The translations under genes were made by a program, and so were the position numbers. This document shows, piece after piece, positions 5,051 to 63,692 of a stretch of DNA of 64,000 nt (position 1 is its first letter; each line of letters begins with the position of its first letter). The stretch lies in contig OZ024740.1 of the NCBI GenBank assembly GCA_964016885.1, positions 93,744,001 to 93,808,000 of the forward strand, given 5' to 3'. The notes below the pieces were generated by a model. The model worked only from the letters and a program-made list of their open reading frames with translations, searched no databases and had not been told where the DNA came from. The DNA is from Eledone cirrhosa. Its lineage: Eukaryota.

Positions 5051-5304
5051 CAAGTGTACGTATCCTTTCACCCACGCATTCACACACAAATATATTTGCA
5101 CACCTCTACAAAATACATATACTCACATTCACATAGTAACATGTTCATACTTACATACATATACACATGCATACATATATATATACACACATGTATTCAT
5201 GTACATACATACGCGTTCATGTGTATACATTTTCATACTCAACTTATCCTTATATACACACGTATAGACACACACATATATATATACATACTCTATATAT
5301 ATAT

Positions 5305-5393
5305 AACGGAAGAAATGTGGTAAGGAACAAGGTTGACCATAACGCACCAAAGTACTCAATACTTAGGGTAGTAGACTGGGTAATGGGAACGAG
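5305..5393 (-). repeat. Fragment of PLE-derived mini-element (AACGAAGG family)
   Basis: The same ~90-bp sequence (aacgaaggaaatgtggtaaggaaccagg...gggtaataggaac) recurs at 17931, 31770-31858 (inverted), 32838 and 42596, usually fused to (TA)n. Confidence 0.85.
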
Positions 5394-5599
5394 TTGGGGT
5401 CCATTGCTAAATCTGACCTTTATAAAATAACCCACACCCCAAATAACTTCTCATTCACTACCAGAAAGGGACACAGCAGTCAACCTGTTGTTGCTACCTA
5501 GATGAAAACTGCTATGAAATCCCACAATGAATTTTATACTTGAATTTTCAAGTCTCAAATTTTAACTCTTCGTATTATTAATTTTTCTTAATATTAATC

Positions 5600-9564: not shown

Positions 9565-9602
9565 CCTTTACCGGTTTCGCAGTTCTTCTGCTTTTCAAAA
9601 GG
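9565..9602 (-). ncRNA. Minimal type I hammerhead, U3-A8 core
   Basis: Reverse complement of 9681-9718. Confidence 0.75.
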
Positions 9603-9680
9603 TGAGTTGAGATGGAGGGTCTGTGGTTTTTCTCCCATCTTGAGATGTGAGAAAAACCACAGACCCTCCATCTCAACTCA

Positions 9681-9718
9681 CCTTTTGAAAAGCAGAAGAA
9701 CTGCGAAACCGGTAAAGG
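9681..9718 (+). ncRNA. Minimal type I hammerhead, U3-A8 core
   Basis: CCTT TTGAAAA GCAG aagaa CTGC GAAA CCGG TA AAGG. All stems pair perfectly. Confidence 0.78.
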
Positions 9719-17851: not shown

Positions 17852-17930
<79 letters not shown>

Positions 17931-17932
<2 letters not shown>

Positions 17933-18121
17933 CGAAGGAAATGTGGTAAGGAACCAGGTCGACCATAACGCACCAAATTACTCAATACTTAGGGTAGTAG
18001 AGTGGGTAATAGGAACAAGTTAGACCCCGACGGCTGAGCTCAAGCCGTGTCGACGGCTAATTCTGGACTCCAGAATTAGCCGTCGAAACGGCTTGAGCTC
18101 AGCCGTCGGGTCTAACTTGTT

Positions 18122-18126
<5 letters not shown>
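17931..18126. repeat. AACGAAGG-family copy ending in a near-perfect fold-back hairpin
   Basis: 18009-18126 is a palindrome centred on ctgga-c-tccag (18068). Confidence 0.9.
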
Positions 18127-29660: not shown

Positions 29661-31134
29661 TATTCTAATTATTATTGTGTCTTTATTATAATAATACTCA
29701 GAATATTACAACACTGAATTTCCAGTTTATACTGCTATTATAAATAATATTCCACCCCGCATGTGACTTTCGAAAAATATAAATTCTATCAAAAATAACC
29801 ATGCTATTGAAGGAGCAGATATGAACACATGGTATTCAGAGTTACCGATATACGCTTTTATCAGCTCCGTGCATAAGAAGAACTTTATACAAGATGCACT
29901 TCCTCCTTCAATCCCGCAAATAAATGAAGACTCTTTTTATGTAGTCTCTGTCTGTCATATATTGTCGTAACATCTGTTTGCATTTGCCATTCCTAATCAT
30001 TCAACACTTTTTGCGTTTAATTTAGCTTCACATAAAAGAGATCAGTACACAGTATAGAAACGTATTTGATTATTTGTCTAAAACTACTACTGTTAGAATT
30101 CATAACTCAAGGAATTACACGAAAAGTTTGAAAAGAATCTCACAATGAAAAGTATATTCAAAAGAGTGGAAAACCTCCAAATGTTTGATATAATTCTAAG
30201 GACCATATGGTACAAATAATACCTTCACTATATTTCCGTTGAAATCAACGTTAATTGATTTATAAAATCTTTCGCATTTTACTCACTTTCATGATAACAC
30301 AATACAGAAGAATATGAGACGAAAATAATCTGGATAACCATAGAAAAATGTTCTTTTATATAATAGATCTTTGAATAATTGCAAGAATTAAAAGTAATAC
30401 TTTCGAATGTGTCTGATTTCTATTTTGTAAAATACAACATCATATTCCATTCTAAGAGTAAACAAAATTATATTCAAACTGAAATTAATTTAGTAACTAT
30501 ACATTTTCTTTACAGATAAAATAGTTTAATACTCTGGGCACATTTGCGTCCACAATTCGTCGAAAAACGTACAAATATAACACGTTGTATTTTAGGTTAA
30601 TTTAACCCGAAGATTTTACATTGGAGGTGGAATAAACTGAATGCAAAATATATATACTAACCTTTACGTATAATTAACAAAAAATAAATATATTGTTCTT
30701 GTATAAATATAATTTTAATCTAAAGTAATATTCAAAGTTCGTTCAACTGAAATTTTTCATTTTCATTATTACTTGGACATGTTTGTGTTTGTGTAAGCAA
30801 TTAATCATTTTTTTTAAATAATTTCTATCAAAGTTTCATTGTAGTTGTTGTATGTTCAATATAAGTTACTTATGTTTGAAACATGGTAATACTATTTTAA
30901 GTATGTTATCCTATTAGGCATAACAATGAAGGTAATATTGATGTAATATTTCTATTAATTTTATAATAATATCTATATAAATAAAGAGTCGCAAAGCAAC
31001 TTTGTTTATAAGCAGCTACAGAATTTTGAAATTAGGTTGTAACATGAGATTATGCCGTATTTGACGATATAGAATCAGTCTGTTAGTTGGGATTTAAAAA
31101 AGAAATTATCTGAATGGAAAAGAAAGGATTAGTT

Positions 31135-31210
31135 CAAACCATATGGGACACGAATCAACACATTTGATTTGCCGAACCTATGTGTTACCATTAAACCAAC
31201 ACGAAGCCCA
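31135..31210 (-). repeat. Possible decayed tRNA-derived SINE head
   Basis: A-box-like TGGTTTAATGG and B-box-like GATTCGTGTCC at tRNA spacing. No intact cloverleaf. Confidence 0.35.
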
Positions 31211-31238
31211 TACTTCCTGCCATTCACCTAGCACACAC

Positions 31239-31270
<32 letters not shown>

Positions 31271-31282
31271 TTATATATATAT

Positions 31283-31858
31283 AGGAACAAGTAAGACCCC
31301 GACGGCTGACTTCAAGCCGTTTCGACGGCTAATTCTGGACTGAATGAAAATTTATTCTGGTATTTAAATAGCCGAGCTTATCAAGGGGTAATTCCATTTC
31401 GCGAATAGATCGATTTTTTGCGTTAGCATTCGAAGGTAAAGTTTTTTCGGTGGGATTGGGATGTTCTTGGTAGAGAAGTCGATGTTGTGTTTTCGCATGT
31501 TGCGGGTGAAAGAAATTGAGCTTAGCGGAAAAGTCTGGATACGGCGTGGTAGGGTCGGAAAGTGCTCTACTACGGGGATAGGAGCTAGATAACGAAAACA
31601 CAACATCGACTTCTCTACCAAGAACATCCCAATCCCACCGAAAACATTTTACCTTCGTATGCTCACGCAAAAAAATCCATCTATTTGCGAAATGGAATTA
31701 CCCCTTGATAAGCTCGGCTATTTAAATACCAGAATACATTTTCATTCAGTCCAGAATTAGCCGTCTTACTTGATCCTATTACACACTCTACTACCCTAAG
31801 TATTGAGTACTTTGGTGCGTTATGGTCCACCTGGTTCCTTACCACATTTCCTTCGTTA
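31283..31858. mobile_element. PLE-derived mini-element in inverted arrangement (ORF N-terminus fused to pLTR hammerhead)
   Basis: Arms ~31325-31496 and ~31592-31766 are inverted. Encodes MRKHNIDFSTKNIPIPPKKLYLRMLTQKIDLFAK, homologous to the PLE N-terminus STKNIPIPS. Confidence 0.85.
31296..31389 (-). ncRNA. Type I hammerhead, U3-A8 core (TTGATAA)
   Basis: ACCCC TTGATAA GctCGGCTA...TAGCCGtC GAAA CGGCT tgaagtc AGCCG TC GGGGT. Confidence 0.78.
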
Positions 31859-32244: not shown

Positions 32245-32724
32245 ATATTGTTATGCTTTGGGAGGGTCATGTTGAAAATAAGAAACACAGCACCTGATGG
32301 TTTCACTTCAATTTATTATAAATTAAATTTATAAATTTAGGAATTTATAAATTACCGGTTGGTTGGTTGGTTCCACAACCAGACGATTGTTCATATATTG
32401 TCAAAGCTCATTCGTCACACATGTTGTGACCTCTTCAGTGAACGAGGATTCTTTTCTTTGTGTTTCTGCCACTCCTTTGTTCTACCCTACAAAGGAGAGG
32501 CACAAAAACAAAGAAAAGAATCACCAGTCACTGAAGAGGTCACAGAATATGTGACGAATAAACTTTGACAATATATGAACAATCGTCTGGTTGTGGAACC
32601 AACCAAGCAACCGGTAATTTATAAATTCCTAAATTTATTAATTAAATGTATAATAAATTGAAGTGAAAGTAACTGGCGCGTTACTTTGTTAGTGGTAACA
32701 TGACCCTCCCAAAGCATAACAATA
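32245..32724. repeat. ~480-bp imperfect palindrome with two degenerate hammerheads (32400-32442 -, 32527-32569 +)
   Basis: Centre ctcctttgt-tctaccct-acaaaggag at ~32484. Motif GTCA CTGAAGA g GTCACA..TGTGAC GAAT..TGAC. Confidence 0.88.
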
Positions 32725-32781: not shown

Positions 32782-32837
<56 letters not shown>

Positions 32838-32839
<2 letters not shown>

Positions 32840-32969
32840 CGAAGGAAAAGTGGTAAGGAACCAGGTGGACCATAACGCACCAAAGTACTCAATACTTAGG
32901 GTAGTAGAGTGGGTAATAGGAACGAGTAGGACCCCGACGGCTGAGCTCAAGCCGTTTCAACGGCTAATT
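32838..32969 (-). repeat. AACGAAGG-family fragment
   Basis: Matches 17931-18062. Confidence 0.85.
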
Positions 32970-40300: not shown

Positions 40301-40945
40301 TAGCCCGTCAGCATTCATCACCTCAATGGCCGTATCTTTGTTCCAGGTATTATTTATTTCAGCATTCAGATCATTGTCTGCTTCGGACGGTTCCTCCGTT
40401 CTCTCAACCTCTTCACCTTCATTTCCCACTAGGTCGTTTGCCTGGCATACTCCACACTCCATTTCCAACGTAATATCTCTGCTCAGTTCCTCCAGTTCCA
40501 GCTCGCTTATCCACCCATTAGTTCTTACTACCCGAGCCTGCCCGGCAATTATTGTTCATCTAACTTAAATAGACCAATATCGTTCCATATGTTATGCATC
40601 CGTTTCCTATAGCCTTTCTCCTTGAGGTTACTCTTCAGGTAACATTGCATAACAGTTCTATTCAATTCTTTCGTCCAGTTGGTTCTGGTCCCTTTCCTTC
40701 TTCTTCTTCCTCCGACACCAGCAGTATTTGGTTGACAGCCAGGTCCCTGCTGCTGAGCCAGGGAGCACCTGCTGGGTGAGAGTATGTCACATGAAATTCT
40801 AGTCTCCACTTCACCGTTATTCGAACTGTTTAGGTTCGACATTTAAACACTCTTATCGTCTACATTTGCAAGCAGGGGTTAACCATTACAAAGTCGGCAA
40901 GTGGGGTGTTACAGCCCTTGTCTAACCCCCTCCCCCCTCCCCCCG
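37390..40945 (-). mobile_element. R4/Dong LINE, family 2, full length, decayed
   Basis: N-terminal NWTKELNRTVMQCY..GYRKRMHNIW, RT (GIFQGDSLSPLLF, FMDDLK) and RLE. ORF span ~37466-40842 with many frameshifts. Confidence 0.92.
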
Positions 40946-41010
40946 GGTAATTATGGGATTTACGGTCGAAGTAAGTCCTACGCAATCTGTGTTTGCATGC
41001 AGTTACCAGT

Positions 41011-42402
41011 CAGTGGCGGATTTAACAGGTGGCGAAGGTGGCAAATGCCGACTGGGCCCCTGCCGACTGGGCGCTTGCCAAAAAAAAAAATTGTAATTTG
41101 GGCGATATCCAAAAATACCTCCCCCATGCCTAGGGATAAATAACTTCGCTGTTCGCTGCTGATATGAGGTTAAATAACTTCGCTGATGGCTGCTGGCTGC
41201 TGAAATGAGGCTATTCCAACAAATTTACATTCCCTTTTTTTTAGCCGTTAAAAGAAATATAGATTTATTTATTCATTTGAAACGTTTTTGTTAGTTTCAT
41301 TGTTTTGTTTTTTTGGCGATATTTTTGTTAGTTTCTTGTTTTTTTTTTTAGTTTCTTTTTGATTTATTCCTTGTGACTGAGTGCTTTGAACGTTCAACAG
41401 ATAAATTGGAAGAACTCAGATGCGATCACAAATTTTAACAACTTGTGGACCAGGCAAAGAAAGCCTGGAATGACGTGGGATTTGATGCATCTGAAACTGA
41501 TTTCAAAATAACGCGAGTAAGGAGAAGAAAGATTATGGATGGTGAAGTTTGTGGTGTTGAGAGACTAGCTACTGCTTCAGATAGATATCGCACTGCAATT
41601 TATTTTCAATCACTGGATAGTATGATTGGGGAGATGAGAGCCCGAACTGAAGGAATAAAAAAAATATCTTCAATCTTTGGATTTTTGAGTCCAAATCGAC
41701 TGGCTAAATGCTCAGATGATTAACTAAAAACACATGTAGCAACATTGGTAGATAACTTTCCAAATGAATTCACACTGGAACTCAGAAATGAACTCTTTTC
41801 TTTCATTGGCCGCTACTTTTCACAGCCAAACGCAGCTTTAAAACAAAGTGGGGTTATGCCATATCTGAAATTTTTACTGAACAATGACTTGTGTGATGTC
41901 TTTCCCGAGTTTGAAATTCTGGTAAGGCTATTTCTCACTTTAACAATTGGCATAGCAAGTGCGGAACGCTCTTTCAGTGTTCTACGAAGAATTAAAAATT
42001 ATCTTCGTTCAACGATGGGCCAGGAGAGGCTATCCAGTTTTGCCCTGCTGGCAATTGAAAACAAAATTACTAAATCAGTAAACTTGGACCACGCTATAAC
42101 TCATATTTCAACTGTTAAAGCTCGCAGAGGTCTGCGCATGTAAAAGCAATTTGTGTAAAAGACTAACATATATACAACTTTATTACTTTATTATTTGTTT
42201 ACAGTACAGCACATCTGTTTGTTTGTTTCAAATAAAGTGTACTTGTAATTTAATTGTCTTCTTAATGATTATTGGTAGCTAAATGGGAAATTAAAAAAAA
42301 AACTTGTTCAATACTCGCTCGAAAAAAGGTACTTTCATTTTCACTCTGGGACCTCCTTACTGACCAAAGCCGACTGGGCCCTATTCCTTAAATCCGCAAC
42401 TG
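41011..42402 (+). mobile_element. hAT DNA transposon, internally deleted
   Basis: TIRs CAGTGGCGGATTTAA / TTAAATCCGCAACTG. 8-bp TSD TTACCAGT at 41003 and 42403. Confidence 0.95.
41445..42143 (+). pseudogene. hAT transposase C-terminal dimerisation domain
   Basis: ASAERSFSVLRRIKNYLRSTMGQERLS. In-frame stop at ~41721. Confidence 0.9.
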
Positions 42403-42724
42403 TTACCAGTTCGTCTTTTTGTTTAGGAGTTGGTCCGTCGAAAACAACATTTGTAAAGTTCCTCCGAGCATAAATTGCACGGACGGATTCCTCCCGTGTA
42501 AGAGTTGGCTCTGGACAGTAAGCTCCAAGTGAGATCATAGGTAATATTGTCATCTTTGAGGTCCCAGATGTGGCCCGAATGTGTGTTGGCTAGATAACGA
42601 AGGAAATGTGGTAAGGAACCAGGTGGACCATAACGCACCAAAGTACACGATACTTAGGGTAGTTGAGTGGGTAATAGGAACAAATAATAATAATAATAAT
42701 AATTATTATTATTATTATTATTAT

Positions 42725-49500: not shown

Positions 49501-51680
49501 AGAGTATTTTGCAGGGAAATAGATAGGTCTAGCATACACGGTCAACTACACGGACCAAAAATTCGTGATCTGTGTGCTTAACTTATATAGGCTTCATAGA
49601 CGAGGACCCGGCTACTGGAAGATAAACGCGTCCTTACGAGCGCGCAAGGCCTACAGAGACCTGATTAGCGAACTAGTTAAGCGGTCGTTGACGGGGGCCA
49701 TCGTCAAAAACAAGCGGTGGTTTGCTCTGAAAAAAGCGATTAGAATAGAATCCAATACGTTTAGTAAGGCTTTAGCAATAGAGAAAAATAGAGCAGAGGG
49801 AGAACAAGTTAGAAAAGTAGACGAGGCGCTTATCAAAGGCATCGCGACCGACGTGCTTGCGGCAAAATTGGCTCTTGACCAATTATTCAATGCAAAGCAC
49901 AAAAGGCTGCGTTGTCAGAGCTAGTGTGCATGCTTTCAGACACGTGGGGACGAAAGCCGTTCAATGGGCCCAAGTGGCGGAGGCGCGTCGTGGCAACAAA
50001 GCCACGATCAGGTCTTTGGTGGACCACGACTGGCGCATGCTACTCGATCTCGGGCAAATGTGTGAAGCTTTTCAGCGACACTTCGTTGAACTGTTCGGGG
50101 GCAGTGGTGAGCCGGGTCGAGGGATGGACTTTAGTGTCTACCTCGACGGACTGCCGCGGCTCTCGGCCACTGAGGCAGAGTGTTGCGAAAGCCTATAACA
50201 GCCGCTGAAGTACGGGAGGCAATGACTAGCTGCACATGGGGTAAATCGCCTGGTTTGGATGGTCTGCCCTATGAACTTTACGTACATATGTCAGACTTGT
50301 TCGGAGGCCTCTTGGCGGATTTCTACTGCAACTGGCAACAGAACGGGTGAATTCCCAGTTCTGTGAGCCGAGGAGCGGTGGTACTGCTGAGAAAGGATCC
50401 GAACAAGGGGGATAACATAGATAATTTCCGGCCCATAACTCTGATAAACTCAGAGTTCAAGATTTTGGCCAAGGTGGTAGCAAAGAGGTTGGAGCTTGTC
50501 ATTGGTGGTCTGGTGGGAAAGGCGCAGATATGCGCTATTCCTGACAAATCCATCCACGACAACCTCCACCTTATGCGATACATCCTAGAGAGGGTGGCTA
50601 GGGAACCTGGCACGGGTGGGTCTTTGATCGATTTAGATCAGACGAAAGCTTTCGATGGGGTTGACCATCGTTACCTTGCGGCAGTCCTGAGGGCGGCTGG
50701 CTTTGGGCCCGTCTTCAGAGGCTGGATCGCTGCCATGCCCAGCGACATCTGCTCTGTGGTGAGAGTGAACGGTCACCTTTCGGAACCGATCAACATCATG
50801 CGCTCGGTCCGCCAAGGATGTCCCCTCTCTTCCCTCTTGTATATATTGACACTCGAGCCATTACTGCACAAACTGGAGACGTTGAGGGGCATCCCGCGCG
50901 AAATAGGATGCGGAAGATCCGTTTCAGCATTTGCGGACGATGTCACCGTAGTGGTGTCGAACGCGAAACACATCAAGGCGATCGGCACTACACTAAGAGA
51001 ATACGAAGCGGTGACAGGAGCAATGATCAACCAGGAAAAGTCAGTGGGCGTGCAGCTCGGCACCTGAGAGGCAGGTCCATGCCGTCCAACAGCGTCGTCG
51101 GACGCTGAACGGACGGACCGGTTAAATTGCTATGCGTCTGGTTCGGTCCGGACCTCCAGACGGACAAAAACTGGGACGAGGTGACGAGCAGGGTGGCTTC
51201 ACTCACCCAGAAATGGGCGGAGAGAAAGCTATCCCTGAAAGGTCGATCGGAGGTGACTAACGCGTACATCGCGTCTGTCATCTGTTACCGCCTGGCCGTT
51301 GTACCTTGTCCTAAGCCCCGTCTGACTGCTCTGGAGCGTTTGCTCTTTCGCTTTTTGTGGAAGGGATGTTCTCCGATGGTCAGGCTGTCCATCTTTTGTC
51401 AACACCCGCTAAGTGGAGGGCTGGGAATGCCGTCGTTGATGATGCGCAGACACGCGCTCAGGCTACATCTCCACCTCTTCCTCGACGGTGATCAGGTGTG
51501 GTCGTCGTTTGCTAGACACGTATTTCCCCAGCTCGTTTCCTTGACGGAGCTGCAGTCCTGGGTCAAGCGAAGACCGAGAGGGAGTGCCTGGTGACTGGAA
51601 TGCCTTCAGGCGCTCACAGCCCTCGACCAATCGGGCAATGTGATCGGTGGAAACTCCACCTCGGCGTTCTATAGAGGGAT
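46545..51680 (+). mobile_element. Tx1/L1 LINE, family B copy 2, 3' end lost at PLE junction
   Basis: ORF1 with N/S-rich tract and CFRCGSKTHLRAFC knuckle. ORF2 from 48896 (SINARG, VGDWN, QGCPLSSLLY, AFADD). Decayed. Confidence 0.92.
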
Positions 51681-51872
51681 AGTCCCTTTTCAAATTATCC
51701 TAATTCCCTATAACCCATCCCTTTTACAACTCCTACAACTATTATAAAAGAGCGCCCTTAGAATATAGACCCCAGATAAACAAGCTGAGCTGTTGATGTA
51801 TACCACGATTTCAAACTGCTAATATTGAGTGAAACGTTGATGAAAATAATGAACTTACAATTACCTGTTATA

Positions 51873-51919
51873 TGCTTTGAAAAATACCACCATATGGTCG
51901 GACGAAACGGCAGTCGGCA
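51873..51919 (+). ncRNA. Hammerhead in 5' pLTR, U3-A8 core, stem II decayed
   Basis: TGCT TTGAAAA atacc..GGAC GAAA CggcaG TC GGCA. Confidence 0.55.
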
Positions 51920-52153
51920 ATAAACTTGTTATAATGTCATAAAAGTTCCTTTGTTCTTTTTGCTTAATATTTCTGCTCTGCTTATACACATAGAGCTTAA
52001 ATAGCTACCGTCGCATATTTGGTAGGTCAGGCGGGATCATCGCGATTTACGTACGACCTATCATACATCTTGCTTATTTAGCTCCCTCCTGAAGAGCTTA
52101 ATTTTCACTGAAAGACACACCACCCTGGGGTGCCTTTTCACTACACCGACAGT

Positions 52154-54734
52154 ATGCTGCAAAGGACCATCTTCCGTCATAACTTAAGAACATACCCATA
52201 CCACCAAGGGGTACTTATGAAAAGCAGCTTATAACCAGCGTTAATTCGTTTGTAAGGGGAATAAGATGGCGCACCTTCCACTTCGATAGAAGTCGTAGCG
52301 CCCCACTAGAGAGTCCATCGAACAATAAGTATGGATTTAGGACATTTAGGAGCCCCCCTCATAACCCTCTACTCGATAAAATTTGAGAGTGACCTATTGT
52401 CTCTCGTCCGGTCTATTATGTATAAAAAGAAAAACAGTAAGCGTAGCGGCTTCCAAACTAAGTTAGAATCACTAGTTAAATCTTTTAAGGACACAAATTG
52501 TATACCCGTACCCTCGGACAAGACGAAGAATATGTACAACCTGAGTTATGAAGAATACCGCGGATTCATATTCAATGAACTACATAAAAACTATAAAAAA
52601 ACACTGTATCCAACCTAAATGTGATTAACAGGGAGGCTAAAGTGATAGTAACGAAGCTAGGATTAGAGAAATGCACACAATCTCACACGCCCCGCCAACC
52701 AAGGTTCACGTTGAAAGATCATAAGGAGGACTTTGCAAGTAGCCCCTCTGTCAGGCTCATTAGCCCCTCTAAATCTGACATATGCATTATAAGTAAAACA
52801 ATACTGGATGAAGTCATACCTAAAGTTAAGGATAGGATTAGCCTGGAGCTATGGGGAAACACTGCGGAAGTGATGAAGTGGTTCTCAAGCATTAGCAACC
52901 ACAAATCACTACGCTTCATCCAGTTCGATATAGCCTCCTACTAAACGTCTATATCCCCCATAATACTGAATAAAGCGCTCATACTGGTAATGCGGACGGG
53001 CGGAATCACTAGATCCCAGATTGACATAGTTCTTGCCGCTCCTAAAACAATTATCACATTTGAGGATGAATTGTGGACGCGCACGAACACACATAATAAC
53101 TTCGACATCACTATGGGGTCTAGTGACTCGGCACAGGTGATATACCTCGTCGGATTGTACCTGCTCAAGGAGCTCAACGAGCAGTTCCCACACCTCAGAG
53201 ATGGGCTGTGCCGTGACGACGCATTGCTTACTGTGGTGTTTAAGCGACACAACCTAGAAAGGACCTATATACATTCTTCAAGAACTTTAACCTATCAATA
53301 ACTATGGATAGAAATAGTAAGGCAGTCAACTTTCTAGATGCCACAGTAAACCTAGATAAGATAGAATATACACCGTACCATAAACATAACGAGAGGCCGA
53401 CATACGTCAATGCCAACTCCAACCACCCAGGCTCAGTCAGCAAAGCAATAGTTAAGGGCGTATCTAGTAGGATTAGCGGACTATCTAGCAACGTGACCGC
53501 ATTTGAGGCAAATGCGGAGTATTAGAATAAGGCGCTAGCTAGGTCAGTGCACAAAGATATACTTCATTATATTGAAACAAACAGCACCACCCCACTACAC
53601 CAACCCAGCCCTATAATCACGCATAATATGTCCATGGGGGTTGGAGGGAGGTCTAGAAAGACGAATAGGGACAAGAAGAATTTAGCTAAGAACACCAACA
53701 CTCGCAATGCAGACTCGGATAGGGCCCGCACAGCTGGAAAGCGTTACGCCGCCCCAAGCAAGACCAACAGTGAAAACGGGGGCCAGAGGTCTAGGAGATT
53801 CCAGACCAATACACATACCACCGGGAGCCCAGGACGCACACCTGGTAGAACCCATAATAATATAGATAAAGGGAGGGTAAGCAGCATAGGGGATAAAAAA
53901 CGCAGTGGAATGAATAGAAGACGTAATATCACCTTCTTTAACCCGCCCTTCAACTCTAATATTATTACAAACCTCCCCAAATCTTTTTTTCTCTTTGATA
54001 CATAGGAACTTCACCCCAGGTAGTAGGTACGATAGTGTCATCAATAAGAATACTATGAAACTATCGTACTCGACAGCCCCTAATCTGGCCTCCCACCTAG
54101 CGAAGACCAATAAGAATAAGATTAAAGAGGGACTTAAGGCCATCCGAAATAGTGGACCATGCCAGTACACACGACAACATGGGACCGACCCACTTAGTGA
54201 AACGCCCAGGGGGATAACAGGCAATAGGCCCGGTCCCACTAGGCAGCCCGCGGCCGCTTGGAGGAACATACACCCCTGAGTGAGGAGCACGCCCCTATTA
54301 GGATGTGTAATTGCCGACGGAAGGACAAATGCCCACTAGCTGGACACTGCTTTATTAAGAACGTAGGATATGCTTGTAATGTAACAACAGACACGTATAC
54401 TAAGACGTATGTAGGGTCAACCGCTAACCAGTTCAAGTCTAGATTCAACGCCCACCAGGATAGCTTCCTAAATGAGAAGCTTAAAAATACCACGTCGTTA
54501 GCGAGACACGTACATAACTTAAAACAAGCAACAACCCCCTACACACTAAGCTGGAGATGCCTTACTAAAGCTCCTCCATATAGCTCGTTAAGCAGGTTTT
54601 GTAGCCTGTGCCTAACTGAATTTCATGCCATAGTATTCTCAGGACTTAACTTGCTCAACAGGAGGTCAGACATCTTCTCGTCTTGCCCCCATACTATACT
54701 TAGCTCTTTCTTTTTCTTCAGACCGGACACCTAA
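52154..54734 (+). pseudogene. PLE RT + C-terminal GIY-YIG ORF, disrupted
   Basis: KNIPIPP, QFDIASY, MGSSDSAQV, CRDD, FFNPPFN, CNCRRKDKCPL, TYVGST..FKSRFNAH. Colinear with 59832-62291. Confidence 0.92.
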
Positions 54735-57204
54735 CCCTGACCCCACCCTGTCTCGCAAATGGCTGCCCCGCTGGCGAATAGGTTGCGCTTGAGTAACCCC
54801 GGCCCCATTGATGCCTCGGCTCCCCACTTGCCGATGGTGACTCTGGTGGGGAACAGTCGGTCCTGTGTCCCACTTGCTAAAGTGGGATTGGTGGCAGCAT
54901 TGTTTCTGGGCGCTCTGGGGCCGCTGAAGCCTGCAGTGTGGGATATTGCGAGTGCCTGGACCCACGCCGCCTGGTCTGAGGATGTACCGTCGGGGATACA
55001 TATCAACACATTCGGGAATTTGCGCAAGAGAACAGAAGCGGAGCACCCAATGTGGCGGCCGTTTCCTGCCTGTAACCAATCACACCCCTCCCCCTAGTAA
55101 ACCCCCGCCCCAATAGCTCCCCCTACCCATTTTCTCCCATTCATTTTTTTGAGTTCGTTCTTTATTAATAAGGAATTTTTTTGTATATTACCACGGTTGA
55201 CATAATAAGTTTGGAGAGTTGACTCCCTTGATGTCTGACCACTCGATAAGTTAGGTGTTATGCCTCTTGAACTACGGTATATCTTGCTAGTCTACATGCT
55301 GTCAGCTACTACCCGCGACTGGACATGGTGGTAGCCACAGGCCTGCGCGTGCGCGGTAGCATGGAGTATGTATCTTCTGCTAGTCACCCCGTGTAATATG
55401 ATACCCCAATATTCCACGCACGGGAATCACCGAAGCATGCGCAGACTTAACCGGGAGATGACATGCGAACTTGAAAATGCCACAAGAGAGATCCTTTAGA
55501 TAGCATAGACGCCGGACCATACCCGAAAATATCTGCATATACACCGTGATCTATCTTGAATATGCATGAATGACAGGATATAGAAGCAACATGGATAATA
55601 CGACCACCATCTAAGCTAGAACCGACCCCTACTACATATGACAACAAACAAAGAGGGGAAAGTCCTTAGCATTTAACCAGTCGCATGTGTACTTGGAATT
55701 GGTGAGAGGAGGGGATAATAGCGAGAGACACAATATACCACCCCAGTCAAGTCCAAAACTGGACTTTTTTACCATTATATCCTATACACCAATATATCCT
55801 ATACAGCAAAACCTTGGATTTAGAACCGGCAGGCTGATTTATCGCAAACGCGTGCGATCCCACGCATGGCTTAATAACTGGCACGACCGAAACTATATGG
55901 AAAAGATCGAACGGAGCACACCCTGCGACCACTAGCTGTTTGATCAGCAGATCCATCTCCTAGGGAGTGCACACAGCTGATAGTGAATCCCAGTTGATTC
56001 GTGAACTTGGAAATTTTCAACAAGACGAACTGTGCCTGGAGCTATGCAGATGATTGCATGCGCACAATGGATGTCGCACCTACAAGGTCACCTGTATTGT
56101 TCATCTAGCTGTATATGTGTAAAGTACTCATGTGTGGGATATCCCTGAGTACATTTGCTTGACTGTTAATTGTTTATTAATTGTTTGTTAATTAGGCAGG
56201 AATATATTATTATACCTTTATTAATCCTATAGTAATAATTTTTGATAATACATTATTAGATTATTTAAGCTATTTAATACCTTCTTAAAAATACATTATA
56301 TAATTATTGTCTGTTTGCTTATATATTTTCTTACTTATCATTTTCTTTAATCTTTGATCCCAACTTGATAAGCTCTTTGAATCGCTCCTTAATTAGATTA
56401 CTTAAATTACTTTATTTATTATACATAATTTGTTGTATCTGTTGAAGCAACCCTTTCGGAAATCCCTCGGATCTCCCAAATTCCGTAATTTTTAATTTGT
56501 AATTTTCTTCAATTCATTTATATATATTTTTAAAGATTCTCTAAACTTTTAATTCTTTGAAGAGTCTTTCGGAAGAGGTTTTTATTGAAAATATTAAAGA
56601 GGCCTTTTTCTGAAGGATTTGTTGAAGGCTTTTTGAATTAACCTTTAATTGATTAATTTCTTTCAACTATTTCTTTCTTAATTTTTAAATTTAATGTTCA
56701 ACCTCTTAATCTTTAATTTTTAATCTTGGATATATAATATTTCTTAATCTTAAATTGATTAATTTCTTTAATTTCTGAGTTTGGAACTCTTAAACTTCAG
56801 ATCCTAACTTAAATCATAATCTTTATATTATGGATTCCCTAAATCAATAACTTTATTAACCTCTTAAATCTTTTTGAAGTAATTTTTTTCCCTAATTTTT
56901 AATTTTTTTATTTTTAAGATTTGAACTTTCGTAGGGATTATTAAATCTTCGTAAATTTTCTTAAATTTTTTTAGGAGAATTCTTTAATTTTTAACCTTCA
57001 ATCCCTAACTTCTAGGCCCTTTTCAAATTCTCCTAATTCCCTATAACCCATCCCTATTACAACTCCTACAACTATTATAAAAGAGCCCCTTAGAATATAG
57101 ACCCCAGATAAACAAGCTGAGCTGTTGGTGTATACCACGATTTCAAACTGCTAATCTTGAGTGAAACGTTGATGAAAATAATGAACTTACAATTACCTGT
57201 TATA

Positions 57205-57251
57205 TGCCTTGAAAAGTCCCCCCATATGGTCGGACGAAACGGCTGTCGGCA
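57205..57251 (+). ncRNA. Hammerhead in 3' pLTR, U3-A8 core
   Basis: TGCC TTGAAAA GTCC ccccatatggtc GGAC GAAA CggctG TC GGCA, followed by ATAAA. Confidence 0.8.
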
Positions 57252-57401
57252 ATAAACTTGTTATAATGTCATACAAGTTCCTTTGTTCTTTTTCCTTAAT
57301 ATTTCTGCTATGCGTATACGCATAGAACTTAACTAGCTACCGTCGCATATGTGGTAGGTCGGGTGTGTGTGTGTGTGTGTGAAAGGTCGGTAGATAGGTA
57401 A

Positions 57402-57444
57402 ATATTGCTGATGAGTTGTAACAACAACGAAACTAGTTCAATAT
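57402..57444 (+). ncRNA. Minimal type I hammerhead (canonical core)
   Basis: ATATTG CTGATGA GTTGT aaca ACAAC GAAA CTAG TT CAATAT. Confidence 0.85.
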
Positions 57445-57869
57445 TCCTTGTCTGGCTTTCTGGAGAATAGGGGGAAGGTGTTCCCCCGAAAAACCAGTAT
57501 GACTCTAAAAACCGGTTTGTCTGTGTGTTTACATACAGAATAGCTGGGCCGCTCACTGTAAAGCGACCAGTGAAAGACTTGGTACACCTACATATGTATA
57601 CGTGTGTGTATTCATATACACACTAGTATTTCAGTATGCATATGTAGATGTACATTTTTAACTTAATTGTTTATGCGTCAGTCATACAAAAGTGAGTTAC
57701 AAACGAAACGAAATTTAATTTCGTTTCGTTATTTATTTTTATCGTCTCCGCTGAACCGTTGCGTACTCACACTCTATGCAAATTAGTCTGCCCACTACTA
57801 ATTTTCATAGAAAAAGCATATAACGATATGTGCTTTTACAATTCTCCAGAAAGGCCGGTAGATAGGTAA

Positions 57870-57912
57870 ATATTGCTGATGAGTTGTAACAACAACGAAA
57901 CTAGTTCAATAT
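57870..57912 (+). ncRNA. Minimal type I hammerhead, second copy
   Basis: Identical to 57402-57444. Stem I is extended by attctccagaaagg/ctttctggagaat. Confidence 0.85.
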
Positions 57913-58216
57913 TCCTTGTCTGGCTTTCTGGAGAATAGGGGGAAGGTGTTCAACCGAAAAACCAGTATGACTCTAAAAACCGGTTTGTCTGTGTGTTTAC
58001 ATACAAAATAGCTGGGCCGCTCACTGTAAAGCGACCAGTGAAAGACTTGGTACACCTACATATGTATACGTGTGTGTATTCATATACACACTAGTATTTC
58101 AGTATGCATATGTAGATGTACATTTTTAACTTAATTGTTTAAGCGTCAGTCATACAAAAGTGAGTTACAAACGAAACGAAATTTAATTTCGTTTCGTTAT
58201 TTGTTTCTATATATAT

Positions 58217-58286
<70 letters not shown>

Positions 58287-58344
58287 ATGAAATATATGAA
58301 ATATATGAAATATAAGAATGAAAGAGCTGCTCAAAACATTATTG

Positions 58345-58391
58345 TGCTTACAGCTGTTTCCTCCAAACCGAGGTTTGGATTCTTCGGAGCA
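58345..58391 (-). ncRNA. Hammerhead in 3' pLTR, CCGAAGA core
   Basis: TGCT CCGAAGA aTCCAAACC tc GGTTTGGAg GAAA CAGCTG TA AGCA. Confidence 0.8.
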
Positions 58392-59831
58392 ATTTATTAA
58401 TGCATGGACAGTTATATGACCTCCTTTTCAGCCGAGAGACATACCAATACATATTCAAACATTGATGCATATTCAAACATTGTGGGTCAACATTCATTAC
58501 AGAATTTAGAGTGGCAGTACACACTTCGAGATTACATTTATATTAATAGGTACAATCAAAAATCAAAGATATAGGTTAAAGTACAACATGAAGATAAGTG
58601 GTTATATAGTGCAAATGTTATATGTGTGGCACGCATGTGCGTCTTGTTTATATAGTGTGGCAGAGAGATATGTGTGGTAGAGGCACTAGGGTAGGTAAAT
58701 AAGAGTGTTAGGTTGGTAGATCTGGTGGCAAAGTCTTTATATGATTGATATAGTCTGTGTGTGGAGAAATATTATAAGCATTAAAGATAGTGCAAGCATT
58801 AAAAGTGTTATAATTATTGGAGATGCACAGCGCAGGGATGTCAAGTATTTCATGTACTTCGGCATTTTCATGGTCAGGGGAGTGTATATTTCGATTATAT
58901 GCCTTTCACATAATCCACGACAATCCAGTTAGAGATCGTAGTCTGGTGTTCTTTAGTTCGATACAGGAGGTTGTTACGTTTCGAGAAACGCCATTGAATA
59001 CCGGAAGTGTGTGTGTGGCTAAGGGGAGTTAATGCGTGCGGGGAGGTAACTCTGGTGTTTCTATATCTAGCCATTAAAATGTGTCCCAATATAGACCCTA
59101 AATTCTATGGTGATGTGCACCTTCCAAGAGAGACTTTTAAAGCATAAAGTGTATTAACTATAGAGTAGTTTAACTGAGTTATGCTGAAGGTGATCATATT
59201 ATTATGGTGGATTAACTCATCTTAAGGTGCTACAAATGAAAATTATAGATGATGAGCGAGGATTCTAAATTAATGATCTCTGTGGTTGTAGTCTGCTCAT
59301 ATGACCAGGCGCGGTGATTGTAGGATTGCTTCAGGACCCAATGATCTCTGGTAAGATCTGGGTCATCGCTTGCTACATTGGATGTCGAAAGATAATCGTC
59401 CCCAGGCAGGCCAAAGGTCAATCCGCAGTCCTCGCGACCCCTCTCTGACCGTCAGATCATCCATATACGTACAACCCGCCCGGCAGTTGCATTGCATTCA
59501 CTCACTGCGCTCAGCAGCCCGGTCCTACTGGTCAACAGCGCTACTCAATTAAATCATTTCACATCTGTCTAAGGAAGGTGTTTCCTCTGCCCAACACTAT
59601 CCAACCGATCAATTCATGCTCAAATTACCCTTAGAGCGGTGTAGTGCCGTTCAAGTGGGTGGATGTTGTCACACCTGCCGTAGAGGTATAAATGGGTATT
59701 TTCCCTGCGAAGGGTTCCAGAGGGATGTCGTTGTTTGTGTTATAATGGATCAGCTAGTGTTGGGTATGTAGTATAGGGTGTGTCCCTGGTGTTTGATGCT
59801 AGATGTGGTGTTAGGTTCCAGTCCGACATTG

Positions 59832-62291
59832 CTATATATAGGGCTTAAAGTTTTGGAAGGAATGTCTGAGGCGGTGCTGGCAAGTTGCAAACACCTCAGA
59901 TTTGTTGTTAAGTAGGTTACGGTTGGAGAAGATAATATTGTGTGTCTCTAGTATAAAGAGGTTACAGAATTTATTAGGTGGTTTGTACGAGGTCGCGCTG
60001 CCTATCACTTCCCATTTGAGTGTGTATGGTTTATTTTTAGATTTTAGATAGTGTATGTAGCTAGAAAGTGAGGTGGAGTTGGCTAGGCTGTGCTTTTTGA
60101 ACGAGTGGATGTGCGAGTTATATCTGATTTTGAAGCAGTTAGAAGTGGAGCCTACATAGGTTTCTGAAGAGTTATTAGTCGTGACTGTGCATGAGTATAT
60201 GACATCCTTGGTTAGGCATTTTTTATCTAAAGGGCAGGTTCTATTAGCTCTACAGTTACAATTATCCTGTGCGTTAGTCCGCTGGTTATAATGCAAAGCG
60301 GAAGTCTGTGTGATGGATATAGGATTCTGGGTCTTCGGGTTGACAACCCTGGTGTTATTACTTATACTAGTGTTATTTCTATTGTTACTGCCGTTGCTAT
60401 GGTTGCTTGCTACAGTGGTATTTAGAGGGTTTGCATCCCGTTGTGATTTTGTTTGTTGGAAGTAAGAACTAATTTTACTATTATTGCTGCTAGCTATGCG
60501 GTATGCTAAGTTAGGCGTCGTAGAGTATGAGATTTTAATGGTGTTTTTGTTTAAGAGGTTGTGGTACTTGTGTCCTAGAGGGAAGTTTTTATCTAGTAGT
60601 GAGAAGAAAGCCCTAGGTATGTTGGTGGAGACATTTAGGTTGAAATGAAGGTTGAAAAATGTATTATTTCTTCTTCTATTTTTACTTTTAGTGTTTGGTG
60701 TGTTGCTTCCTCCTAAGGCCCCACAGTAGTTTCCATGGTAATGGTTACTTCCGGTGGCACCCTCCGCTTTGGTGCACTTGTGGTTGCTATTCCTATTATT
60801 AGATTTCCTCATGGACATGTTGTGCGAGATGATGTTGTAGCTATGTGTTTTCTTATGTAGGAACTCAATTTCTATATTATGGCCGGAGCTAGCTAATGCT
60901 TGATTGTAATATTGTGAGTTTTTGCTAAATATGTTTGCGTCATAGGACAGACTAGAGATTCTATTGGACACCCCCTTAGAGATAGAGTTTAATATTGATC
61001 TAGGGTGATTAGACTTGGTATCTACGTAAATAAGTTTCTCATTAGGCTTATGGAAAGGTGTATATATTTTTGAGTCTAGGTATAGTGTGGGGTCTAGGAA
61101 GTTAACATTTTTAGTGTTTTTGTCCATGGTGATACTAAGGTTAAAGTTTTTGAATGTCTTATGCAGTTGTTTTCTAGTTCTTTCTATATTACATTTTTTA
61201 TATTCTATGAGTAGAAGTGCATCATCGCGGTACAAACCACCGTTGAGGTAAGGGAGGTCTTTATGGATTTCATTGAGGAGGTATAGGCCGACCAAATCAG
61301 TGACCTGCGCCGAGTCACTAGATCCCATGGTTATGTCGAAGTTGTTGTGCGTATCCTTGCGTGTCCATAGTTGGTCCTCGAAGGTGATTATGGTTTTACG
61401 GGCTGCAAGGATGACATCAACCTGGGCTCTAGTCAGGTCGCTATTGGTCATGGCCATGATAAGTGCCTTATTTAATAGGATAGGGGAAATAGAGGTGTAG
61501 TATGAATTGATATCAAATTGAATACATTTTTTGTTCTTATTATTCTTGATATCCTTGAACCATTCAATTACTTCACCCGTATTTCCCCATTGTTTAAGGT
61601 GTATCGTGTGTTTAATTTGTGGGATGATTTTATCCAAAATCTTCTTGCTGATAATACCAATGTCGGACTTGGAAGGGCAGATAAGTCTTATCGTGGGGTT
61701 GCTGATGAAGTTCTCCTTATGGTCCTTCAGAGAGAATCTAGGGGGATTCGGAGTGAAAGGTTGTGTATGCCTCTGTAGTCCTAGTTTAGACACTATATTA
61801 TAACCCTCTACATTAATATCTTCTAAGTTTTTCAAGGTGGTTTTTTTGTAGCTTTTATGTAGTTCATTATATATAAACTTTCTATAAGTAATATAATCTA
61901 GGCTGTATATGTTATTAGTTTTATCTGCGTGTACAATAATTTTATTACTAGTTTTGAATCCATTAATAGAAGTGTTAAGTTTATTTAAGAAGGTGTTGCT
62001 TCTAATATGGTGCTTATTGTATTTAATGTTCTTAACTAGTTTAACTAGGTCATTTTCAAAGGAGTTAAGTAGAGTGTTATGAGGGGGGCTTTTAAAGGTT
62101 TTAAAGCCGAAGGAGTCAAAATTGTTAGTATTATTCAAGTTGTTAGATTTGTTTCTATCATAATGGAATGTCCTCCATCTCACTCTATTGATAAATGAAT
62201 TTACACTGTTGATCAGCAATTTCTCAGATGTATTCCTGGATGGAATTGGTATGTTCTTGGTTGACATGGGGAGTTGGTCTTTGATTAGCAT
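59832..62291 (-). CDS. PLE reverse transcriptase with C-terminal GIY-YIG endonuclease (819 aa, open)
   Basis: QFDINSYY, MGSSDSAQV, GLYRDD, VNFLD, CNCRANRTCPL, VIYSC..TYVGST..FKIRYNSH, LLNNKSE..CQHR. Confidence 0.95.
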   Translation of the reverse strand: MLIKDQLPMSTKNIPIPSRNTSEKLLINSVNSFINRVRWRTFHYDRNKSNNLNNTNNFDSFGFKTFKSPPHNTLLNSFENDLVKLVKNIKYNKHHIRSNTFLNKLNTSINGFKTSNKIIVHADKTNNIYSLDYITYRKFIYNELHKSYKKTTLKNLEDINVEGYNIVSKLGLQRHTQPFTPNPPRFSLKDHKENFISNPTIRLICPSKSDIGIISKKILDKIIPQIKHTIHLKQWGNTGEVIEWFKDIKNNKNKKCIQFDINSYYTSISPILLNKALIMAMTNSDLTRAQVDVILAARKTIITFEDQLWTRKDTHNNFDITMGSSDSAQVTDLVGLYLLNEIHKDLPYLNGGLYRDDALLLIEYKKCNIERTRKQLHKTFKNFNLSITMDKNTKNVNFLDPTLYLDSKIYTPFHKPNEKLIYVDTKSNHPRSILNSISKGVSNRISSLSYDANIFSKNSQYYNQALASSGHNIEIEFLHKKTHSYNIISHNMSMRKSNNRNSNHKCTKAEGATGSNHYHGNYCGALGGSNTPNTKSKNRRRNNTFFNLHFNLNVSTNIPRAFFSLLDKNFPLGHKYHNLLNKNTIKISYSTTPNLAYRIASSNNSKISSYFQQTKSQRDANPLNTTVASNHSNGSNNRNNTSISNNTRVVNPKTQNPISITQTSALHYNQRTNAQDNCNCRANRTCPLDKKCLTKDVIYSCTVTTNNSSETYVGSTSNCFKIRYNSHIHSFKKHSLANSTSLSSYIHYLKSKNKPYTLKWEVIGSATSYKPPNKFCNLFILETHNIIFSNRNLLNNKSEVFATCQHRLRHSFQNFKPYI

Positions 62292-62540
62292 ATTGGCAAT
62301 ATTATATGTCAGCTCAACGATATGGAGCAGTTAATAGCATTAGTTATACTATTTATGGTTATGCAAATACAAAACCTTAAGCAGTTGTAAGTATTTTACA
62401 CACACCCTAAATAGTGGTAGGCAGTAATGTATTACTACCTTATTACCAGTAAGTTAAGTAGCTCAATGTAAAAACATCAGATGATTTACAGAGCAGTTAT
62501 ATGAAATATAAGAATCAAAGAGCTGCTCAAAACATTATTG

Positions 62541-62587
62541 TGCTTACAGCTGTTTCCTCCAAACCGAGGTTTGGATTCTTCGGAGCA
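62541..62587 (-). ncRNA. Hammerhead in 5' pLTR, CCGAAGA core
   Basis: Identical to 58345-58391. Confidence 0.8.
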
Positions 62588-63692
62588 ATTTATTAATGCA
62601 TGGACAGTTATATGACCTCCTTTTCAGCCGAGAGACATACCAATACATATTCAAACATTGATACATATTCAAACATTGTGGGTCAACATTCATTACAGAA
62701 TTTAGAGTGGCAGTACACACTTCGAGATTACATTTATATTAATAGGTACAATCAAAAATCAAAGATATAGGTTAAAGTACAACATGAAGATAAGTGGTTA
62801 TATAGTGCAAATGTTATATGTGTGGCACGCATGTGCGTCTTGTTTATATAGTGTGGCAGAGAGATATGTATGGTAGAGGCACTTAGGTAGGTAAATAAGA
62901 GTGTTAGGTTGGTAGATCTGGTGGCAAAATCTTTATATGATTGATATAGTCTGTGTGTGGAGAAATATTATAAGCATTAAAGATAGTGCAAGCATTAAAA
63001 GTGTTATAAGTATTGGAGATGCACAGCGCAGGGATGTCAAGTATTTCATGTACTTCGGCATTTCATGGTCAGGGGAGTGTATATTTCGATTATATGCCTT
63101 TCACATAATCCACGACAATCCAGTTAGAGATCGTAGTCTGGTGTTCTTTAGTTCGATACAGGAGGTTGTTACGTTTCGAGAAACGCCATTGAATACCGGA
63201 AGTGTGTGTGTGGCTAAGGGGAGTTAATGCGTGCGGGGAGGTAACTCTGGGGTTTCTATATCTAGCCATTAAAATGTGTCCCAATATAGAACCTAAATTC
63301 TATGGTGAAGTGCACCTTCCAAGAGAGACTTTTAAAGCATAAAGTGTATTAACTATAGAGTAGTTTAACTAAGTTATGCTGAAGGTGATCATATTATTAT
63401 GGTGGATTAACTCATCTTAAGGTGCTACAAATGGAAATTATAGATGATGAGCGAGGATTCTAAATTAAGCACAATAATATTTTGAGCAGCTCTTTGATTC
63501 TTATATTTCATATAACTGCTATGTAAATCATATGATGTTTTTACATTGAGCTACTTAACTTACTGTAATAAGGTAGTAATACATTACTGCCTACCACTAT
63601 TTAGGGTGTGTGTAAAATACTTACAACTGCTTAAGGTTTTGTATTTGCATAACCATAAATAGTATAACTAATACTATATATATGTATAAATT

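Follow-up and report, generated by a model that had tools for sequence, protein, structure and literature searches.

Positions 31283–31858 of the window, the 64,000-nucleotide stretch of Eledone cirrhosa DNA analysed here, hold a head-to-head insertion of two inverted arms, each of which carries a junction between the start of a PLE ORF and a hammerhead ribozyme. We lean towards the view that the two arms were inserted into (TA)n in a one-off event and were copied from a short RNA that already joined codon 34 to the ribozyme, probably a 389-nt circle. With good confidence it can be said that the template was a junction-bearing RNA of some kind, whether a one-off or the product of a genomic master that has since been lost. 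Taken alone, the locus is a dead-end transposon copy, and its interest lies in the family to which it belongs.

Positions in the element are numbered along one natural parent copy (the unit, L035:670-4200, 3,531 bp), starting with the A of ATGGAATTACCCC as 1; the core of the ribozyme occupies 14–20, the predicted cut lies at 97/98 and the ATG at 288. On the minus strand, arm 1 (31596–31283) reads TTCG/TTATCTAGC, a UTR of about 92 nt, the ATG at 31498, MRKHNIDFSTKNIPIPPKKLYLRMLTQKIDLFAK, which comprises 34 codons and ends at 31397, and then the pLTR; past codon 34, the parent sequence reads ...FAKRLRWRTFF. The order of pLTR end, UTR, ATG, ORF start and hammerhead that an earlier note on this DNA had described for the minus strand is borne out by the sequence. 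Arm 2 (31593–31858) is inverted relative to arm 1 and 95.4% identical to it over 173 nt; 8 of the 173 positions differ, with changes of its own in each arm, and a 29-nt deletion in arm 2 takes out GAAA, stem III and the cut site. The same note had spoken of a unit of about 390 nt: the junction runs from unit 389 to 1, but the 389-nt unit is a reconstruction that is whole in neither arm, as arm 1 lacks unit 118–189 and arm 2 lacks 75–103 and 197–290, and the second, inverted arm had been overlooked. Both outer ends lie in (TA)n, one short (unit 117) and one long (unit ~197); where 117 and 200 are given as ends, a few bases that match (TA)n are counted in, the true ends being ~115–117 and 196–197. 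With inverted pLTR arms, a tail at one end and an AT-rich target, the locus shows the insertion pattern of PLEs, and it has no usable protein-coding capacity (a 44-codon frame at most). Self-BLAST of the unmasked window was swamped by (TA)n matches, and none of the public DNA contigs listed against 31100–31610 bridges the junction, which carries little weight because the flank is uncovered.

Table 1. Coordinates of the two-armed insertion, its sequence motifs and other pieces of the parent family in the window.
Feature	Position	Strand	Identity or basis
Arm 1 pLTR segment (unit 1-115/117), short end in (TA)n	31283..31397	-	92% identical to L035, a young parent copy
ORF-to-pLTR junction (unit 389 to 1), 1-nt overlap	31397	-	sequence comparison with parent
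First 34 PLE ORF codons; frame continues 10 codons into pLTR, stop 31366-31364	31397..31498	-	
Last pLTR tail bases and 5' UTR (unit 190-287); arm 1 inner end	31499..31596	-	95% to L035
Inversion point; 4-nt overlap TTCG common to both arms	31593..31596	.	
Arm 2 ORF nucleotides 4-102 (unit 291-389), same junction at end	31593..31692	+	
Arm 2 5' ribozyme part (unit 1-74), then 29-nt deletion between two GTC copies; ribozyme incomplete	31692..31765	+	
Arm 2 pLTR tail (unit 104-196), long end in (TA)n	31766..31858	+	
Type I hammerhead motif, U3-A8 core, predicted cut 31301/31300	31296..31395	-	descriptor and constrained fold
TATA-like word TATTTAAATA at 31370-31361 and initiator-like word TCAGTC with A at 31341 (unit 57), both in loop II of the ribozyme	31337..31370	-	
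Parent-family head-to-head pair, typical ~200-bp (unit 57-200 vs 59-117)	17926..18126	.	
Parent-family pLTR piece (unit 64-200)	32833..32969	-	
Parent-family tail piece (unit 106-200)	5300..5394	-	
Parent-family tail (unit 104-202) and, joined to it, the C-terminal endonuclease part (unit 2184-2374)	42402..42687	-	

The U3-A8 hammerhead that had been placed directly after the ORF codons was recovered in arm 1 by both a descriptor and a constrained fold, with UUGAUAA at 31384–31378 and GAAA at 31323–31320; U3-A8 is a known hammerhead variant of PLEs (PMC4209133). The descriptor, which passes over motifs with a short stem III such as those at 57390 and 57858, found the arm 1 motif and one other in the window and none in five window shuffles, both strands included. 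The hammerhead-constrained fold lies 1.0 kcal/mol above the MFE, the free fold of 31290–31400 is unremarkable (z -0.83), and in Rfam, where (TA)n matches dominate, the arm 1 ribozyme is not among the best 150 of 217 rows for the window. The stretches 57013–57363 and 51680–52031 form a repeat pair with 94% identity, of which the copy at 57209 carries a second U3-A8 hammerhead motif (+) and is likely the pLTR of a broken PLE at ~52186–54734. Since arm 1 holds the only complete ribozyme motif at the locus, the insertion itself is unable to yield a circle by double cleavage. Loop II of the ribozyme contains two words, at unit 28–37 and 53–57, which we take to be TATA-like and initiator-like, respectively, as judged by promoter consensus. 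Unit 53–57 is likely the RNA 5' end, with the promoter inside the ribozyme loop; alternatively, the pile-up of ends at this site could be caused by a structure that blocks the enzyme.

The parent of the locus is a 3,531-bp Hydra-like PLE with an intact 717-aa ORF, which has the UTR and the pLTR in common with it; autonomous copies sharing both parts were thus found, as the earlier note had supposed. A DNA search of the species' own genome (3.0 Gb) returned 2,267 candidates, of which the 40 that were scored are mostly 96–98% identical and break at the junction, where candidate parent copies run on into the reverse transcriptase ORF. L035 and L036 form a tandem array with intact 717-aa ORFs, two units of which are identical at 3,530 of 3,531 bases, and in L035–L040 full-length units of 3.5 kb stand in tandem, several of them having intact ORFs; the family is judged to have been active recently. 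The L035 protein contains DKT (117), CxCx5C (572), a C-terminal AYIG of GIY-YIG type (605), CxxC (670) and CxH (698), and has RWR at 37–39 where the Hydra clade has RWK; L035 also possesses a hammerhead motif and is inserted in (TA)n. No Pfam match was obtained for the parent ORF, and GIY-YIG or RVT_1 is present in part of the members among the atlas neighbours of the protein. Compared with the majority sequence of the 25 closest among 56 parent copies, arm 1 agrees at 309 of 315 positions and arm 2 at 259 of 266, placing the arms 2–2.6% off the subfamily majority, compared with 2.0% for full-length copies (the 25 nearest average 98.0%). No private variant common to both arms was found against the parent copies, which, together with a divergence like that of full-length copies, argues for a fresh template.

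The peptide encoded by arm 1 had also been matched to the STKNIPIPS ORF of the window; this ORF is indeed from a PLE relative, but was rejected as the parent, to which it is 38% identical. It is an open 832-aa frame at 59832–62330 (-), situated between the inverted repeats 58302–59273 and 62498–63468. The pieces at 5304, 17930, 32837 and 42595 do belong to the parent family, as suggested earlier (90–95% match), and the GIY-YIG remnant at 42590–42402 is the C-terminal part of the family's endonuclease (91%). The family piece broken at 42402 picks up again at 41010 (40851–41010); the unrelated insert at 41011–42401 holds a 139-aa frame (41724–42143), which we take to resemble the end of a hAT transposase. 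Long hairpins at 32330–32620 and 9598–9685 are probably small DNA-transposon derivatives.

An 18-mer spanning the junction, and a 26-mer spanning it that was searched with 3 mismatches allowed, have 2 genome matches each, one per arm of the locus. The deleted form, which was supposed to be mobile, is a stillborn unit and not a mobile family, since its junction is confined to one locus and there is no contiguous 389-nt unit. An origin by deletion of almost the whole PLE ORF does not hold up well either: the step from 389 to 1 is probably not a simple genomic deletion, and template jumps of the reverse transcriptase or RNA joining fit it better. Splicing was rejected as the cause of the junction, the parent sequence being without GT-AG or AT-AC ends, and as the ends at the junction are not splice sites, closure of a circle is without support from splicing. 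With regard to retrozymes, the locus has a type I motif (arm 1) and lacks a dispersed multi-locus family. The idea that retrozyme-like RNA descends from an autonomous PLE has support from the junction in both arms and from tandem arrays elsewhere in the family; the part of it that fell is the mobile unit at this locus, which works like a retrozyme precursor and is not itself a member of the retrozymes.

Exact genome-wide matches number 33,670 for the 3' half of the ribozyme and 239 for the ORF start. A survey of arms drew on 95 of the first 100 listed matches, which all lie within the opening 21 Mb of contig C1; of its 107 arms, 90 begin at unit 51–64, and the other ends lie at 117 in 51 and at 200 in 43 cases; most sampled insertions are ~200-bp head-to-head pairs in (TA)n. 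Compared with the parent unit, public contigs show loose ends in three runs, at unit 53, 117 and 197; as the sample may be the assembly's own, this is not taken as independent evidence. Three gap searches (23, 53 and 59 matches) together with 5 loci from ORF-anchored copies, duplicates being removed by hand, yielded at least 75 short copies with a jump from the UTR or ORF start back into the pLTR, almost all of them with junctions of their own; the searches used exact words, so that all counts are lower bounds, and covered landings genome-wide to unit ~730. Take-off lies at unit 50–68 in 53 of the 75 jump loci, at 95–98 in 12 (exactly at 98 in 10), at 72–75 in 2 and at or below 40 in 8. Landings range from unit 233 to 1027 and are at or below 423 in 69 of 75, the gap widths favouring short ones; 60 ORF-anchored copies, read to ~2,300, contain 8 jumps, 6 of which land at 343–423 and the others at 642 and 1015. 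Four coordinate pairs recur among the jump loci, two of them with identical junctions (L042/L060 and L054/L055). One short and one long end are found in 53 of 60 inverted jump loci, two long ends in 1, and 6 could not be resolved.

Take-offs at unit 50–68 likely begin at the transcription start, and the 10 junctions at the exact predicted cut may be read as a genomic record of cleaved templates. At L259 (G000:C11:24.71 Mb) and L093 (G000:C2:42.13 Mb), the cDNA ends (three/three) lie at the predicted ribozyme cut, and both loci likely record self-cleaved templates. L102 has an A-run at its landing site; A- or T-rich untemplated bases, possibly RNA 3' tails, are present at the jump junctions of L102, L048, L255 and L260.

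The window locus is among the 8 of 75 jump loci with take-off at or below unit 40, a position out of reach of run-off if the RNA starts at 53–57. In this class, which is small, was defined after the data were seen and draws on exact-word searches, the junction is present in both arms in 5 of 8 loci (the window locus, L052, L155, L161 and L252) compared with 1 of 67 others (Fisher p=2e-5), it is repeated in 6 of 8 versus 4 of 67 (p=3e-5), it has an overlap without inserted bases in 8 of 8 versus 19 of 67, and the inner ends of inverted loci fall on run-off sites in 0 of 6 versus 42 of 54 (p=4e-4). The presence of the junction in both independently primed arms, together with inner ends that keep away from run-off sites, makes it likely that a 389-nt RNA with this junction existed on at least one occasion. 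On the simplest reading, the template of the upstream class would already have contained the junction and would have had no 5' end at 57, as in a small circle, a cut form or a multimer; the class likely derives from junction-bearing RNA, which was probably circular. One member, L063, looks like the product of a linear template. Second junctions at the run-off site in L252 (57 to 43) and L154 (56 to 37) suggest an earlier DNA generation and not a spontaneous RNA circle.

We propose a scheme, the RNA steps of which are all read from DNA copies, in which the RNA would start either near unit 53–57, with the TATA/initiator words in loop II of the ribozyme, or at unit 98, where the ribozyme is predicted to cut. 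The enzyme would nick both strands of the target and prime internally at unit 117 and ~197, close to the 5' end of the RNA; for another PLE, it was shown in vitro that both strands are nicked and that copying begins at two internal positions (PMC11167929). Copying would mostly run off after 60–140 nt, thereby leaving ~200-bp head-to-head stubs, and longer copies would need a jump to a 3' end, either to the true one, giving full-length and tandem elements, or to a short one near the ORF start, giving mini-elements. On a small self-closed fragment spanning the whole ribozyme, both primers would copy one junction, as at the window locus. In its widest form, the proposal is that the genome preserves the birth of retrozymes: the PLE would copy itself like a target-primed LTR element, with internal start, strong stop and jump to a ribozyme-made 3' end, and mis-jumps and small RNA circles would spawn ORF-less units, namely a 389-nt one that was dead at once, the seven-ribozyme array L154 and an unrelated 468-bp family of thousands. 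We offer this wider picture tentatively and would stop a little short of calling it probable.

The same junction-bearing RNA would be needed if its source were a deleted genomic master (pLTR, UTR, 34 codons, pLTR), itself the result of a DNA deletion or of a previous template jump, whose transcript two ribozymes cut to the 389-nt unit for mobilisation in trans, and which is absent from this haplotype. Such a master, which we consider unlikely, would agree with the overlap-type, insert-free junctions of the entire class (8/8), with the two-step junctions of L154 and L252 and with the 13-nt insert that is private to the array L156 and present in each of its 7 units; the identical junctions of L042/L060 and L054/L055 may reflect low-level mobilisation, and a one-haplotype assembly can miss an unlinked source. 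However, no second copy of the junction exists at 3 mismatches, no source was found for the L154 junction or the L156 insert, the arms are without common private variants, and a mobile retrozyme in the same genome has 5,129 exact matches as opposed to 2. A history without any short RNA, in which a single first-strand template jump made the junction and the cDNA folded back at TTCG/CGAA, copied itself and was joined via GTC to a second, long-end-primed cDNA, is in our judgement improbable as well. While it accounts for the missing source locus, the 4-nt TTCG overlap at the inversion point and the arm 2 deletion that joins at GTC beside the cut site, and self-priming has been proposed for PLE inversions (PMC3846280), it predicts neither the association of both-arm junctions with upstream take-off (5/8 versus 1/67) nor the avoidance of run-off sites by inner ends; moreover, overlaps at the inversion point are just 1–2 nt in L052, L155 and L161, and the two arms of L156 contain 3 and 4 copies of the junction. 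That the locus was rearranged after insertion, or is an artefact of assembly at the hairpin, is hardly credible even though inverted repeats in (TA)n are unstable and difficult to assemble, as the arms differ at 8 of 173 positions with changes private to each, the outer ends obey the one-short/one-long rule of the family (53/60 inverted jump loci), and four other loci have the same architecture with different junctions.

Under the preferred reading, the one-off copying of a short junction-bearing RNA, repeated rounds on a closed template would give retrozyme-like arrays, and the best candidate for a 'missing link' seen is L154 (G000:C2:356029785-356032022). It has 7 junctions at 299-nt spacing and consists of tandem units in the 170–400-nt range, each with a complete type I hammerhead motif, tail, UTR and 10 codons and ~100% identical to L035. 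The predicted circle folds at -58.2 kcal/mol, compared with -51.2 +/- 4.9 kcal/mol for 60 base shuffles, with 51% of bases paired. All 7 genome-wide matches of its junction (2 mismatches allowed) lie in this one array, which is not a dispersed family. The arrays L155 (273–274-nt units), L156 (G000:C28:22823.6-22825.7 kb; 233-nt units in both inverted arms), L124, L147 and L157 are without a ribozyme core; the 13-nt insert in the L156 units matches the ORF end and is found only at L156. A genome search for two cores within 450 nt returned 10 matches at 4 loci, L154, L270 (217-nt units, two complete motifs), L269 (one complete motif) and L271 (a DNA triplication that includes the (TA)n); complete same-strand ribozyme motifs in adjacent units occur in two family arrays, L154 and L270 (family units 217–299 nt). 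Variants alternate in L155, and one variant is present in two adjacent units of L154. Rolling-circle copying as the sole cause of arrays was rejected for L155 and L271, which grew at the DNA level, and because the L155 variants show such growth, array length is no proof of rolling-circle copying.

At 57381–58210 (+), the window further contains a 468-bp unit in dimeric form, which has a type I hammerhead motif of the canonical C3-G8 kind. This unit has 5,129 exact 34-mer matches genome-wide, many in head-to-head tandem arrays, and no homology to the parent L035 was detected (best E 0.7). Among 20 loci read, both long arms were resolved in 10, the other 10 having a short, cut or unresolved arm; all 10 resolved loci have ends at 268–274 and 343–344, (TA)n-rich flanks and scattered inner ends. 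Judging from these features, the family is a mature non-LTR retrozyme with a PLE-type insertion signature, namely the two-arm signature of PLEs on a template that is likely circular, matching the class of the window locus. In the literature consulted, mobilisation of retrozymes by PLE-type enzymes has so far been proposed from co-occurrence and shared features, and the 468-bp family adds sequence evidence for it.

For the origin of animal retrozymes, 75 base-level intermediates are now available from one family with intact copies, and its dozens of short copies likely show how small ribozyme-bearing parasites arise. The activity of PLE hammerheads in vivo was described as 'still a mystery' (PMC7761336), a question on which the 10 junctions at the predicted cut bear, and strong stop and jump would supply a mechanism for pLTR regeneration, for which there was 'no obvious mechanism' (PMC2377424). 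A pLTR origin of retrozymes was argued in a 2026 preprint (bioRxiv 10.64898/2026.07.22.740005: Li, Clavereau and Pollet) from co-occurrence, pLTR homology and a tree, its main text reporting homology at the PLE termini (pLTR) only. Besides this origin, inverted pLTRs, tails on one side only, deletions at microhomology, self-priming, initiation at two internal sites, a circular template (as a proposal) and non-autonomous PLE derivatives are already known (the same preprint, PMC11167929, PMC8557442, PMC3846280). Retrozyme birth events at base level appear to be new; Supplementary Table 6 of the preprint or the Hydra files of PMC8557442 could hold retrozymes with an ORF or comparable structures.

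The window element resembles non-LTR retrozymes (Cervera and de la Pena 2020, PMC7229834; bioRxiv 10.64898/2026.07.22.740005) in its type I hammerhead, its 170–400-nt unit, the lack of a usable ORF and the derivation from a pLTR for which the preprint argues. Unlike them, it is inverted and not tandem, has one complete motif, occupies one locus and keeps a UTR and 34 codons, and it is 95–98% identical to a family with intact copies; the sections consulted of PMC7229834 do not mention inverted arrays. L154 fits the preprint's sequence definition of an active retrozyme, i.e., no fewer than two units in a row that carry complete motifs. The parent shares DKT, CxCx5C, CxxC, CxH, the AYIG endonuclease motif, the hammerhead and (TA)n targeting with the C-terminal EN+ PLEs of the Hydra clade (Craig et al. 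2021, PMC8557442), to which these motifs would assign it, and differs from them in length (3,531 bp vs 'generally <3 kb') and in having RWR in place of RWK. Head-to-head arms, a tail at one end and two initiation sites are features of ordinary PLE insertions (Arkhipova et al. 2013, PMC3846280; Frangieh et al. 2024, PMC11167929), and an internally deleted PLE derivative with inverted pLTRs is described from Adineta; in contrast to such insertions, the family has a tail of ~80 nt instead of 30–40 and initiates before the ORF. Its arms accumulate at a fixed set of run-off sites, the predicted cut among them, whereas the Anolis study, in the part consulted, reports no RNA-seq ends there (PMC11167929). 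Chlamys elements that are putatively non-autonomous, such as MRC1, likewise derive from PLEs, lack an ORF and have pLTRs as well as multicopy insertions in head-to-tail order (PMC8557442); these are amplified and have no canonical hammerheads, whereas the window element is single-copy.

A literature search that covered few subscription papers returned no paper joining 'Penelope' and 'pLTR' with 'strong-stop' or 'strand transfer'. In LTR retrotransposons, minus-strand strong-stop synthesis is primed near the RNA 5' end and yields a short run-off cDNA, which has to jump to the 3' end. As a working analogy, the family would follow a similar cycle of priming near the 5' end, run-off and jump, with a predicted terminal redundancy of 41 nt (unit 57–97). 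It departs from the LTR cycle in being target-primed on both strands, in using no tRNA primer and in having a 3' end that is likely set by the ribozyme.
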